Part shown: one piece after another, positions 2,278 to 5,603 of the stretch | Layout of the letters: the number at the start of each line of letters is the position of its first letter | How positions within the stretch are numbered: the stretch's first letter is position 1 | Source: Cyanobacteria bacterium auto_48_18 | GTDB lineage: Bacteria > Cyanobacteriota > Vampirovibrionia > Obscuribacterales > Obscuribacteraceae | DNA length: 64,000 bases | NCBI GenBank assembly: GCA_036170915.1 | Contig: JAVHQC010000033.1 | Span: forward strand, 160,001-224,000 | Direction: 5' to 3' | The notes under the pieces: generated by a model | The model's database searches: none | Told to the model about the DNA's origin: nothing | Seen by the model: the letters and a program-made list of their open reading frames with translations, nothing else | Position numbers and translations under genes: made by a program

Positions 2278-3012
2278 ATGCTCGACAATCATTACGCCAA
2301 TTCTAAGCTCGCTGAACTTTATGATTTTGATAGCGGATGGTCTAGCGATAGAGATTTCTATTTATCGCTCGCCGAATCTCAGCCTCAAATGATTTTAGAT
2401 CTCGGCTGTGGAACGGGCCTTCTTTGTAGTGCCTATGCGGGTAACGGTCATCAAGTTACTGGCGTTGATCCGTCGTCTGCCATGCTTGAAATCGCACGCA
2501 GAAAACCACATGGAGACAAAATTGAGTGGGTACAGTCCACTGCCCAGAGTTATAGGTCTGGCAAACTTTTTGATCTAATAATTATGACCGGTCACGCCTT
2601 CCAGGTCTTATTGAAAGACGCTGATATTCTAGAAACTTTTTCGACAATGCAGAAGCACCTGAAGCCAGGTGGTACTGTAGTTTTCGAATCTCGTAACCCC
2701 TTAATTGATTGGCAGAATGAATGGGACTACGAGATGGTAATTGATTTGCCAAAAGGAAAGGTTACAGAGTCAAGGCGATTTCTCGCGATGAATAGCGATT
2801 TGATGAAATTCGAATTGCGATACCAGTTTTCTGATGAGACTTTGATTTCTAAAAGTGAGCTTCGATTTTTGTCACAAGACGAAATCAATAAGCGCTTAAG
2901 TGCATCAGGCCTGAGTTGCAACAAAGTGTTGGGCGGCTGGGATGGTCGTCACTTTGACGAATCTTGCCGAGAGATGATTTTCATTGTCCATACAAGAACT
3001 AATTTAATTTGA
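2278..3012 (+). CDS. Class I SAM-dependent methyltransferase
   Basis: ILDLGCGTG, VTGVDPS..ML, FDLIIMTGHAFQ. Confidence 0.9.
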   Translation: MLDNHYANSKLAELYDFDSGWSSDRDFYLSLAESQPQMILDLGCGTGLLCSAYAGNGHQVTGVDPSSAMLEIARRKPHGDKIEWVQSTAQSYRSGKLFDLIIMTGHAFQVLLKDADILETFSTMQKHLKPGGTVVFESRNPLIDWQNEWDYEMVIDLPKGKVTESRRFLAMNSDLMKFELRYQFSDETLISKSELRFLSQDEINKRLSASGLSCNKVLGGWDGRHFDESCREMIFIVHTRTNLI

Positions 3013-3943
3013 GCTCCCAGTTTTGGCCGGTCAAATGATGCCCAAAGCTGTAATGCTGCTCTTCCAATACCAATTGAAAACCTGCTTGTTCGTAAATTCT
3101 ACGGGCGGAATGAAGAATATCGTTTGTCCATAAAGTCATTTTCTGGTAGCCACGTTGCCTGGCGAATTTTATGCATTCTTGCACCAGGCGGCGACCGATG
3201 CCCAAGCCGCGTGCATGAGGTTCAACGTACAGCAGCCGCAACTTAGCTACTTCGTCGCTCTCTTTAACTACAAAGACGGAGCCAACTATTGCGTCGTTTA
3301 CCTCGGCAATCCAACAGTGTTCTTTTTCTGCATCGAAGTTGAGGATAAATTTGGCCGCTATTTCTGCAATCAGAGCTTCGAATTTTTCATCCCAGTTATA
3401 TTCTTGATTGTAGAGAACGGCCTGACGGTGAATGATCCAACCCATGTCACCAGGTTGGTGTTCTCGCAAGACATAAGCGGCAGTGTTTTTTGTGCGAGAG
3501 CTATCCAAAAGCTGCTGCACCAAATTAATCGCCTGAATAAGTTTATTCTGCTCATCTAGTGAGAGTGGCTTCAACATCGCCGCCACTTCTTTCTCTGACC
3601 GTGCATTGAGAGGCTCAAAAGCTGCGCGGCCCTTGTCAGTGAGCGACAGAATGTGCTGCCGGGCATCTTGTGCCGATGGTGATTTGGCAATTAATTTTTG
3701 TTTTTGGAAAGCGCTTAGTATCCGACTTAAATAACCGGGATCAATAGAGAGGTCTCGACACAAATCGCTGGCAGTTAAATTTTGACCGTGATAAAGCTCG
3801 TACAAAATTCTTACTTCAGTTAATGAAAATTGACTTTCTAATAATCCTTCATGCAGCACACCAATTTTTTGTGTGTAAAAACGATTAAATTCTCTAACTG
3901 TGGCCACACGCTTGTGTAGATCACTCTTCTTCAGGCTGGGCAT
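2999..3943 (-). CDS. MarR-HTH / GNAT acetyltransferase fusion
   Basis: VREFNRFYT..LTEVRILYEL..DPGYLSRIL MarR domain; LLYVEPHARGLGIG acetyl-CoA motif; start uncertain. Confidence 0.9.
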   Translation of the reverse strand: MPSLKKSDLHKRVATVREFNRFYTQKIGVLHEGLLESQFSLTEVRILYELYHGQNLTASDLCRDLSIDPGYLSRILSAFQKQKLIAKSPSAQDARQHILSLTDKGRAAFEPLNARSEKEVAAMLKPLSLDEQNKLIQAINLVQQLLDSSRTKNTAAYVLREHQPGDMGWIIHRQAVLYNQEYNWDEKFEALIAEIAAKFILNFDAEKEHCWIAEVNDAIVGSVFVVKESDEVAKLRLLYVEPHARGLGIGRRLVQECIKFARQRGYQKMTLWTNDILHSARRIYEQAGFQLVLEEQHYSFGHHLTGQNWELKLN

Positions 3944-4079
3944 GCCTTGAAACCTCAAACCGATAAGGTTGATATTGTCAACGAAATTAGTTGACTTTGT
4001 CAACTATCTCCCTAAATTCTCTACGCTGTTAGTTAGCAGCTATACATCTATTTCTCTATTTATGCGGTTTGAGTGCTAT

Positions 4080-4107
4080 TTGCACATTTGCAAACACGTG
4101 CTATATT
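4080..4107 (+). promoter_or_regulatory. Putative sigma70 promoter of the tRNA array
   Basis: TTGCAC-16nt-TATATT with extended TGn, 14 nt before tRNA-Gly. Confidence 0.6.
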
Positions 4108-4121
4108 GAAAAAACGTTGAT

Positions 4122-4195
4122 GCGGATTTGGCACATTGGTTGTGCACTAGTCTTCCAAACTAGCGAAAAGAGTTCGATTCTCTTATTCCGCTCCA
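4122..4195 (+). tRNA. tRNA-Gly(TCC)
   Basis: CTAGT-CT TCC AA-ACTAG anticodon arm, GTTCGATTC T-loop, U73 and CCA. Confidence 0.9.
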
Positions 4196-4211
4196 TTTTT
4201 AGGTGAATGAA

Positions 4212-4355
4212 ATGAGTTCAGTGATTCGGGTAATGAAACGTAATTATGGCAGACCTTATATGTCTGCTGATCGTTTTGTCACACCCGTTTTGGATTCTAA
4301 TCACCATGTTTCAACAAGTACAACCATTCCGAAGACCACGTCTACCAGAGCTTAA
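4212..4355 (+). CDS. Small ORF, 47 aa, Thr-rich C-terminus ending STRA* (putative leader peptide)
   Basis: AGGTGA SD at 4201; MSSVIRVMKRNYGRPYMSADRFVTPVLDSNHHVSTSTTIPKTTSTRA. Confidence 0.5.
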   Translation: MSSVIRVMKRNYGRPYMSADRFVTPVLDSNHHVSTSTTIPKTTSTRA

Positions 4356-4390
4356 AGCTTGGTGCTCTGGTTCGTTCGGAGAAAAAACAC

Positions 4391-4466
4391 GCCCATGTAG
4401 CTCAAAAGCAGAGCATTCGCCTTGTAAGCGAGAGGTAGCGGGAGCATTACCACGCCTTGGGCTCCA
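4391..4466 (+). tRNA. tRNA-Thr(TGT), atypical T-arm
   Basis: GCCCATG acceptor, TAGCTCA D-arm, TCGC-CT TGT AA-GCGA, TCCA end; T-loop AGCATTA. Confidence 0.8.
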
Positions 4467-4488
4467 TTTTTCTCCAATTCAAAAATTT

Positions 4489-4560
4489 GCGCACGTGGTC
4501 TACTGGATGGGCACCGTTCTTCTAAAGCGGCTTAAGCAAGTTCGATTCTTGCCGTGCGTG
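4489..4560 (+). tRNA. tRNA-Arg(TCT)
   Basis: GCGCACG/CGTGCGT acceptor, CCGTT-CT TCT AA-AGCGG, GTTCGATTC; no encoded CCA. Confidence 0.85.
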
Positions 4561-4584
4561 AGTTTTGTACAAGGAGATTTTTTT

Positions 4585-4657
4585 AGATCGCTAGTTCAAT
4601 TGGTTAGAATCCTGACTCTTAATCAGCGAGATCCAAGTTCGATCCTTGGGCGGTCTA
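4585..4657 (+). tRNA. tRNA-Lys(CTT)
   Basis: AGATCGC/GCGGTCT acceptor, CTGA-CT CTT AA-TCAG, GTTCGATCC. Confidence 0.85.
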
Positions 4658-4668
4658 TTGTTGTTTTG

Positions 4669-4740
4669 CCTCTGATAGCACAATGGCGGTGCAGCTCTTT
4701 TACACAGAGATGGTTCTACGTTCAAGTCGTAGTCAGAGGA
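4669..4740 (+). tRNA. tRNA-Val(TAC)
   Basis: CCTCTGA/TCAGAGG acceptor, CTCT-TT TAC AC-AGAG, GTTCAAGTC. Confidence 0.85.
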
Positions 4741-4744
4741 CTAA

Positions 4745-4819
4745 TGCGTTATAGCTCAGTGGTAGAGCGGTCGCCTGTTAAGCGAATGATCCCTGGTTCG
4801 ATCCCAGGTAACGCAGCCA
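4745..4819 (+). tRNA. tRNA-Asn(GTT)
   Basis: TGCGTTA/TAACGCA acceptor, TAGCTCAGTGGTAGAGC, TCGC-CT GTT AA-GCGA, GCCA end. Confidence 0.92.
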
Positions 4820-4822
4820 TTT

Positions 4823-4894
4823 TCCACTGTCGTCTAATAGCAAGACTTCCAGCTCATAACTGGAATAATGTTGGTGCAAATCCAGCTAGTGGAA
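4823..4894 (+). tRNA. tRNA with CAT anticodon (Met, or Ile2 if lysidine-modified)
   Basis: TCCACTG/TAGTGGA acceptor, TCCAG-CT CAT AA-CTGGA, T-loop TGCAAAT. Confidence 0.8.
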
Positions 4895-4971
4895 TATTCC
4901 AAAAAAAAGTTATTGCGCAGTTTCGCTGCCCTGTGATATGTTGAGCAAAGTTGAAGTCAGGAAAGTTTCCA

Positions 4972-5127
4972 ATGAAAGCCGTTCTCCAAAATTTGTATAG
5001 CATGAACGATAGACAGCCTCGGGGCTGCTTCTTATCGTTTGTCGTGCCTGTAAATTTCATTGGAGTATTTGGAAATGAGACCAACACAATTAGTTTGCGA
5101 ATTACACCGCCGTCTACCAGAGCATAA
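4972..5127 (+). CDS. Small ORF, 51 aa, ending STRA* (putative leader peptide)
   Basis: AGGAAAG SD upstream; MKAVLQNLYSMNDRQPRGCFLSFVVPVNFIGVFGNETNTISLRITPPSTRA. Confidence 0.5.
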   Translation: MKAVLQNLYSMNDRQPRGCFLSFVVPVNFIGVFGNETNTISLRITPPSTRA

Positions 5128-5141
5128 TGCTGGGTTGATAT

Positions 5142-5216
5142 GGCCGTGTAGTTTAGTGGTAAAACGCGCTCCTGATGAGAGTGTTAGCGATTGTTCGATT
5201 CAATCCATGGCCTCCA
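5142..5216 (+). tRNA. tRNA with GAT anticodon (nominal Ile), atypical G37 and U73
   Basis: GGCCGTG/CATGGCC acceptor, CGCTC-CT GAT GA-GAGTG, GTTCGATTC, TCCA end. Confidence 0.8.
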
Positions 5217-5275
5217 TATTCTTTCACCGATGCCGGTGCGGCACCGCAGATGATACCGCATGCTCGCCGGCTTTT

Positions 5276-5347
5276 GCTCCAATAGCCCAATGCAGAGGCA
5301 GCAGATTTAAACCCTGCAAAGTGAGGACTCATGCCCCTCTTGGAGCA
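5276..5347 (+). tRNA. tRNA-Leu(TAA)-like, short variable loop, degenerate T-loop (possibly a pseudo-tRNA)
   Basis: GCTCCAA/TTGGAGC acceptor, GCAGA-TT TAA AC-CCTGC. Confidence 0.65.
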
Positions 5348-5350
5348 CTC

Positions 5351-5422
5351 GCCCTATTACCCCAATGTAGAGGGAATAGTTTCAAAAACTATAAAGTCTC
5401 AGTTCGCGCCTGAGATAGGGCA
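5351..5422 (+). tRNA. tRNA-Leu(CAA)-like, short variable loop
   Basis: GCCCTAT/ATAGGGC acceptor, ATAGT-TT CAA AA-ACTAT, CTCAG-TTCGCGC-CTGAG T-arm. Confidence 0.75.
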
Positions 5423-5425
5423 TTT

Positions 5426-5502
5426 GGTTCTGAAGATAAACCAGCAGAGTCGCCTCGTTGTCAGCGAGGAAATAGCGGGGGCAGCACCCGTCAGAACCGC
5501 CA
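5426..5502 (+). tRNA. tRNA-Asp(GTC), atypical D and T loops
   Basis: GGTTCTG/CAGAACC acceptor, CCTCG-TT GTC AG-CGAGG, G73 and CCA. Confidence 0.78.
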
Positions 5503-5517
5503 TTTTTTTTGATATAT

Positions 5518-5603
5518 CGGCATGTGGGTGAGTGGTCGAAACCAGGACTCTGTAAAAGTTCTCCCTAAAAAGCACATTCGTTCGAATCGAATCATGCCGA
5601 CCA
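5518..5603 (+). tRNA. tRNA-Tyr(GTA) with a C1-G72 pair
   Basis: CGGCATG/CATGCCG acceptor, GGACT-CT GTA AA-AGTTC, long variable region, GTTCGAATC, ACCA. Confidence 0.85.

Follow-up and report, generated by a model that had tools for sequence, protein, structure and literature searches.

In the translational attenuation of ermC and cat, a sequestered start is freed by a ribosome that occupies the first codons of the leader. Arrest peptides of the TnaC and SecM type carry conserved C-terminal arrest residues. The uORF-mediated transcription attenuator of whiB7 uses a leader ORF to gauge translation (PMC10274678), and in the coat-lysis pair of MS2 and fr a structured downstream start lies about 40-50 nt before the upstream stop (PMC12548453). 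Two further papers describe cyanobacterial L-arrays of tRNA genes and rtcB as induced by translation inhibitors, and the L-array (trn operon) of Anabaena PCC 7120 as controlled by the repressor TrcR (PMC8421152; PMC10272220). The upstream ORFs treated in PMC13285730 stand ahead of protein genes. A reading frame kept open across bacterial tRNA genes was not found among the entries listed for the open-licence literature; Figure S8 of PMC8421152 gives an array comparison. tRNA genes are usually regarded as untranslated. Here their spacing appears tuned for ribosome read-through from a locked start, in a lineage without Rho.

The window is the whole stretch of 64,000 nucleotides that we analysed. 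It comes from a member of the Obscuribacterales, which are non-photosynthetic relatives of the cyanobacteria. Those close homologues of a neighbouring gene that carry a name are from this order as well. Its tRNA array has 11 called tRNA genes on one strand within 1.5 kb, and most of the amino acids of the array are also served by separate tRNA copies elsewhere in the same genome. This is the layout of an L-type array, a long co-oriented tRNA cluster extra to the housekeeping set. All window coordinates below are on the plus strand unless stated otherwise. A promoter-like site, P1 (4079..4107), has a -35 TTTGCA and an extended -10 TG-n-TATATT, and is a consensus match only. The first gene of the array is tRNA-Gly(TCC) at 4122..4195. 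The first tRNA block (4391..4895) has Thr(TGT), Arg(TCT), Lys(CTT), Val(TAC), Asn(GTT) and Met(CAT), where tRNA-Thr was called by Rfam only and its anticodon was read by eye. An internal promoter-like site, P2 (4913..4942; -35 TTGCGC, extended -10 TG-n-TATGTT), is again a consensus match only, and P2-like sites are present in relatives. The second block (5142..5603) starts with Ile(GAT), followed by a TAA-loop tRNA that only Rfam calls (5276-5347), Leu(CAA), a tRNA-like structure whose GTC loop was recognised by eye alone (5426-5502), and Tyr(GTA). The GTC-loop fold has a CCA end and is uncalled by ARAGORN and Rfam; a near-identical copy in another locus (L026) is Ser(TGA) at a relaxed threshold.

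A second tRNA array in the same genome (G000:C33 15652-16720, minus strand, L055) has its own leader and a promoter near-identical to 4079-4117 of the window. That makes three similar promoter-like sites in this genome, two in the window array and one before the second array, and each precedes an ORF of 47-51 codons. In an Rfam covariance search tRNA alone reached the gathering score, and no known cis-regulatory RNA was matched. With the array as query, 205 genomes from the class's other families gave no match to these tRNA sequences, and matches in a plasmid search were limited to single tRNAs. On the minus strand at 2999-4003, divergent from the array promoter, is a gene for a MarR-GNAT fusion; relatives have different upstream genes.

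The array resembles the Anabaena L-array in being a long set of spare tRNAs beside a housekeeping set, and the rtcB of this genome also has leader ORFs. It differs in that the Anabaena trn operon lacks such an upstream leader and does not place more tRNAs in one frame than shuffling gives. TrcR-type tandem repeats over the -10 box or start site gave no match at P1 or P2 with up to 1 mismatch. The Anabaena operon (L124) does have, by eye, a four-codon ATG-led frame that ends shortly 5' of tRNA-Asp.

Two SD-led small ORFs are found in the array just where the initial annotation placed them. Outer ORF1 (4212..4355, 47 aa, class A) has the SD AGGTGA at 4201-4206, and outer ORF2 (4972..5127, 51 aa, class I) has a weaker SD, CAGGAAA, at 4958. 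Both end in STRA-stop. Their common tail of 21 nt, also reported before, is real: it has two copies in the window and 0/100 shuffles match it even when 3 mismatches are allowed. The window's two are the only exact copies in the genome. The distance to the next tRNA had been given as 14-35 nt. This holds for ORF2, 14 nt before tRNA-Ile, and for ORF1, 35 nt before the Rfam-only tRNA-Thr, but ORF1 also ends 5 nt before a remnant of a tRNA-Ala. That gene is intact in relatives and has been deleted here down to about its first 25 bases (about 4361-4385). The T/A difference between the tails was described as synonymous. It is there, but it is paired with an A/T change 3' of the stop, and a 4-bp stem around the stop is kept in both copies. 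Nor are the peptides wholly unrelated in their design outside their ends: both ORFs have a common leader architecture, described below, that was missed. The idea that leader ORFs are placed to link translation with the tRNA blocks has fared well. The ORFs are conserved and SD-led, and homologous arrays were found in 13/14 other genomes of the genus. In one series of class A comparisons ORF length varies by whole codons only.

The STRA-stop itself is another matter. A role in stalling or termination sensing was proposed, but a conserved peptide of this kind is not supported: in the arrays of relatives, where the initial annotation suggested looking, STRA-stop makes up 3/48 distinct leader ends (TRA-stop 5, RA-stop 10, A-stop 23). 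A test of codon-level conservation was also suggested. The pN/pS of the outer frame ranges from 0.33 to 1.85 over 11 pairs. By these two measures the ORFs lack the conserved C-terminal residues of TnaC and SecM. ORF1 of congeners sits behind tRNA-Gly and ends in STRA, STSA or STSV, mostly with tRNA-Ala 5 nt downstream. The orthologues of ORF2 in six same-genus relatives examined end in PRII-stop. Compared with four relatives the window has 21 additional bases ahead of tRNA-Ile, in the last codons of ORF2. The ORF2 tail differs from the window's ORF1 tail at 3/24 positions and from the ORF1 tails of nine relatives at 5-9. Since it is nearer to copy 1 in the window than to any relative's tail, the simplest account is that it looks like a recent 21-nt copy made within this genome, as far as sequence comparison can tell. 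Exact matches to the STRA motif elsewhere (15 viral, 2 in the genome collection, 5 in the order) are out-of-frame or antisense within other genes and none is near a tRNA, so it was rejected as a widespread element. A protein search with ORF1, a short query, gave no candidate.

What the leaders do share is a pair of start codons. We collected 40 leaders from the tRNA arrays of 8 genera of Obscuribacterales. The outer ORF is 36-67 codons long across the order. An inner start lies 91-130 nt 3' of the outer start, mostly 35-59 nt ahead of the outer stop, and it is in the +1 frame in 39/40 leaders despite 10 different spacings. The inner starts were assigned by rule in 38 cases (one is a GTG set for that locus) and by hand in two. 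The region between the starts folds into a single long hairpin, H1, with z <= -2 in 36/40 leaders. H1 of leader 1 (4202..4305, z -2.9) pairs the outer SD and start with the bases just 5' of the inner ATG. H1 of leader 2 (4960..5082, z -3.1) pairs the region around the outer start with both the inner SD (GGAG, 5062) and the ATG. Among 29 distinct leaders outside class A, pairing of the outer start with the inner spacer favours a single register (0.67, versus 0.15-0.57 at others); RNAalifold on 15 divergent leaders among them recovered only a 5-bp apical stem. In class A both-side changes are seen in 6/33 pairs of H1. Class A leaders, ORF1 of the window among them, have a weak inner SD.

In these predicted folds the downstream start is sequestered and is overlapped by the upstream ORF, as in a translationally coupled pair. 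A ribosome modelled at codon 1 of the outer ORF makes the inner site cheaper to open in the two window leaders: the cost falls from 7.6 to 3.3 kcal/mol in one and from 11.7 to 5.5 kcal/mol in the other. Ribosomes at outer codons 1-10 ease the opening, and at codon 15 or at the stop there is mostly no effect. A ribosome at the first leader codons is thus predicted to free the inner start much like in ermC and cat. However, unlike in those systems there is no conserved arrest motif, the long leader overlaps the inner start, and no protein gene follows. The inner-site motif alone was also tried across the order; it is mostly background and useful only for finding second arrays. Before protein genes of the same genome the two-start design gives 69 raw matches. 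Only 9 of these have an inner frame of at least 100 codons, and 2 of the 9 are array leaders.

The inner frame stays open through the tRNA genes. Inner ORF1 (4306..4944, ATG, +1 frame, 212 codons, weak SD) spans the Ala remnant and tRNA-Thr, Arg, Lys, Val, Asn and Met, and stops 30 nt before the start of ORF2. Shuffling the phase of the tRNAs gives P 0.006 for this frame. Inner ORF2 (5075..5413, ATG, +1 frame, 112 codons) spans tRNA-Ile and the Rfam-only tRNA at 5276-5347 and enters tRNA-Leu(CAA); its P of 0.22 is not significant alone. In the second array of this genome the inner frame is 174 codons long (P 0.012). The frames have to be compared from just past the outer stop, since before it +2 is the outer frame and there is no fair control. 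Past that stop the inner frame outlasts both others in 13/13 genus-by-class groups, with medians of 125 codons against 8 and 9. Summed over the 40 leaders, the 300 nt after the outer stop hold 44 stops in the inner frame versus 189 and 201 in the others. The tRNA-phase shuffles combined over groups give p 3.5e-6, a figure that overstates the case since kin are not independent. The inner frame stays open across quite different tRNA sets, and the 21-nt insert of the window leaves it intact.

It is worth considering searches that are blind to frame. A fixed rule applied to 20 new loci gave 3 matches, all in +1 with 130-164 open codons, and nothing in 17/20. Looser inspection of 18 loci added two further long frames and some short ones. 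Metagenome and viral contigs gave 121 pattern matches, 6 of them with at least 2 tRNAs downstream and 5 of those 6 with an outer SD. All 5 of these SD-bearing, array-linked matches are in +1 with 65-202 open codons. A test blind to the start can be made too: in 20/20 such arrays more tRNAs lie under one frame than the shuffle mean, with P<0.05 in 4 taken alone. Only 1/8 comparator arrays exceeds its shuffle mean, and the Anabaena operon does not. Where leaders are in tandem (8 loci) the inner frame fuses with the next outer ORF in 4, ends within 30 nt of the next start in 3 (the window included) and ends 90 nt early in 1. The same hand-over from leader to leader is repeated at one metagenome locus.

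It must be noted that the inner frame has no fixed end point, and the last tRNAs of most arrays lie past it. Short inner frames exist among the collected leaders (35, 41 and 47 codons), and in two further arrays frames of 47 and 85 codons end before the first called tRNA. In one genome the outer ORF is cut to 14 codons and the inner frame still has 126. A Pfam search of the inner ORFs found no family at cut-off. The product varies with tRNA content, and so it is not the conserved protein that would be expected downstream in a coupled pair. We argue that these tRNA precursors are probably also mRNAs. Selection would maintain an uninterrupted frame that crosses as many as nine tRNA genes with their spacers and is linked from one leader to the next, and ribosome traffic would set the supply of spare tRNAs.

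A second helix, H2, lies at the outer stop. In leader 1 (4328..4380; z -2.9 for 4320-4392) the tail and stop codon of ORF1 pair with the 5' remnant of the deleted tRNA-Ala, and the part of that gene that survives is the part that pairs. In leader 2 (5099..5154) the ORF2 tail holds tRNA-Ile by its 5' strand and the stop sits in the apical loop; the pairing is 0.91 versus 0.18 for shuffled upstream RNA. The median pairing to upstream RNA is 0.73 for 14 first tRNAs, a set without the ORF1 leader of the window, and 0.0 for 53 later tRNAs. In 5/14 the pairing of H2 is stronger than with shuffled upstream RNA (5% level). When the leader tail is blocked the acceptor stem of the first tRNA is predicted to form. 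In these models the recurring letters before the stop, Ala included, appear to be due largely to base-pairing with the next tRNA. In the reading proposed below, the peptide sequences would be immaterial and the frames and helices would be what matters.

This design is built from parts that are known from other systems. Like that of whiB7, the leader ORF drifts and draws on a varied set of codons (for 16 and 18 different amino acids in the two window ORFs). Unlike in whiB7, there is no intrinsic terminator or antiterminator after the leader, and the output is a locked second start with a frame running through tRNAs. MS2 gives a similar picture of likeness and difference. The overlap of -50 nt matches, as do the stop-start hand-overs between leaders of the window type. 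However, here no conserved protein is encoded in the inner frame, which lies over tRNA genes. The lock reaches back over a long range to the upstream start, and in the model the inner site stays closed when a ribosome is at the outer stop.

Going by the sequence and the predicted folds, the arrangement suggests that the release of the spare tRNAs is timed by ribosomes that move through their precursor. The direction of the effect is harder to settle, and here we tentatively propose a translation gauge: ribosome traffic over the precursor may hold back its maturation, and stalled translation would then release the tRNAs. In a healthy cell, ribosomes on the outer ORF would unlock the inner start by translational coupling, and the inner ribosomes would traverse the pre-tRNAs. 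H2 would prevent the first tRNA from folding and RNase P could not cut the leader off, leaving tRNA folding and maturation low. When elongation fails through drugs or damaged or missing tRNAs, ribosomes would stall in the leader and in a buffer of 15-20 codons. There they would hold H2 open, and the first tRNA could fold and be cut. The array would then be free of ribosomes and would mature. This scenario assumes that the array is induced under translation stress as in Anabaena. The nuclease step is unsupported, because neither RNase R (above the family cut-off) nor an RNase P RNA was found in this genome, which is 86% complete.

One can imagine the opposite sign, which we consider possible but unlikely. 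A ribosome stalled at the first outer codons would unmask the inner start as in ermC, and translation through the array would switch it on, with ribosomes trailing RNA polymerase to prevent pausing or early termination and to melt H2. Several results are on its side. In the model the inner site opens only when the ribosome is at outer codons 1-10, frame coverage is best at the starts of arrays and is relayed between leaders, and the first tRNA is trapped by H2 unless the tail is blocked. The genome with a 14-codon outer ORF and an open inner frame fits it too, and is a point against repression by traffic. So is the modelled ribosome at the outer stop that leaves the inner site closed, unlike MS2, and so is the fact that a tRNA is unfolded for no more than a moment as a ribosome passes. 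However, activation needs something to act on. Rho is absent from 41/41 genomes searched, and U-tracts follow 19% of the tRNAs in these arrays versus 20% in comparators. Because of this there is nothing seen for trailing ribosomes to antiterminate; Rho-dependent polarity and a folded tRNA with a U-tract as terminator were both rejected on these grounds. A terminator scan found no sense-strand match inside the tRNA blocks. It gave 4 terminator-like matches versus 2.0 by chance, and both sense-strand ones are within H1. Activation would also demand 100-280 codons of good translation while translation fails. Repression by traffic is favoured because there is no target for antitermination and because activation would need such long translation under stress.

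The remaining explanations give the inner frame or the leaders a lesser role. Inner ribosomes might only aid the survival or folding of the precursor, or simply must not stop within it, with regulation left to the promoters and the two helices. The lack of a fixed end point, the three similar promoter-like sites at the heads of three leaders and the drift of the peptides are all in line with this. However, it explains neither why two starts are locked at a fixed register nor why the frame is handed over to the next leader, and we regard it as rather improbable. The view that the C-terminal STRA peptide stalls ribosomes or slows termination, and thereby controls the tRNA blocks, is in our judgement very doubtful. 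It can point to TRA-stop or RA-stop recurring in three leader groups, those before rtcB included, and to a stop codon within H2, a place at which slow ribosomes would make a difference. The rarity of STRA-stop, the different ends of ORF2 orthologues, the closeness of copy 2 to copy 1 and the explanation of the letters by pairing with tRNA all speak against it. It is at least as hard to believe that the hairpins are untranslated RNA and that the inner frames are open by an accident of inheritance; this has very little chance of being right. The arrays do share ancestry, and frames of up to 111 codons occur in the leaderless Anabaena operon. However, an accident should not persist in frame and openness over so many spacings, tRNA sets and frame-blind searches. 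If the translation gauge is true it is a new control layer over stress tRNA arrays, in which tRNAs are controlled through translation of the tRNA genes themselves. It would be a further way to sense failing translation besides repression by TrcR and terminator-based leaders. An open frame over tRNA genes would then be a simple signature that can be searched for in any array.

The same family has a second type of array (L191, L202, L071; also L199, L201, L203) with the gene order Ala-Val-Ile-Gly-Arg-Lys-Thr-Cys-Trp-Phe. It has a strong terminator-like hairpin with a U-tract upstream and is without long read-through frames. In L191 and L202 an SD-led ORF of 38-41 codons ends just before the hairpin, at a sequence that by eye is able to pair with it. 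This leader looks like an attenuator of the whiB7 type.

Leader ORFs are also found before rtcB, in this genome (G000:C6 about 80200-81000, minus strand, L079) and in others (L080-L093). There are two SD-led ORFs upstream, one of 50 aa ending in RRA-stop and then one of about 60-100 aa starting with MRF or MRY, which overlaps the start of rtcB in some genomes. Three rtcB leaders had no +1 inner ATG. Upstream there is also a terminator-like 5' hairpin, and close to the promoter lies a palindrome that is shared with some tRNA arrays. A second rtcB (G000:C11 69567-71296) is followed by an overlapping gene of 208 aa, which looks like the release-factor homologue prfH. Lastly, in the array that also holds L042, the spacer between tRNA-Asn and tRNA-Ser (L058 2997-3213) carries a unit of about 70 nt three times in tandem.
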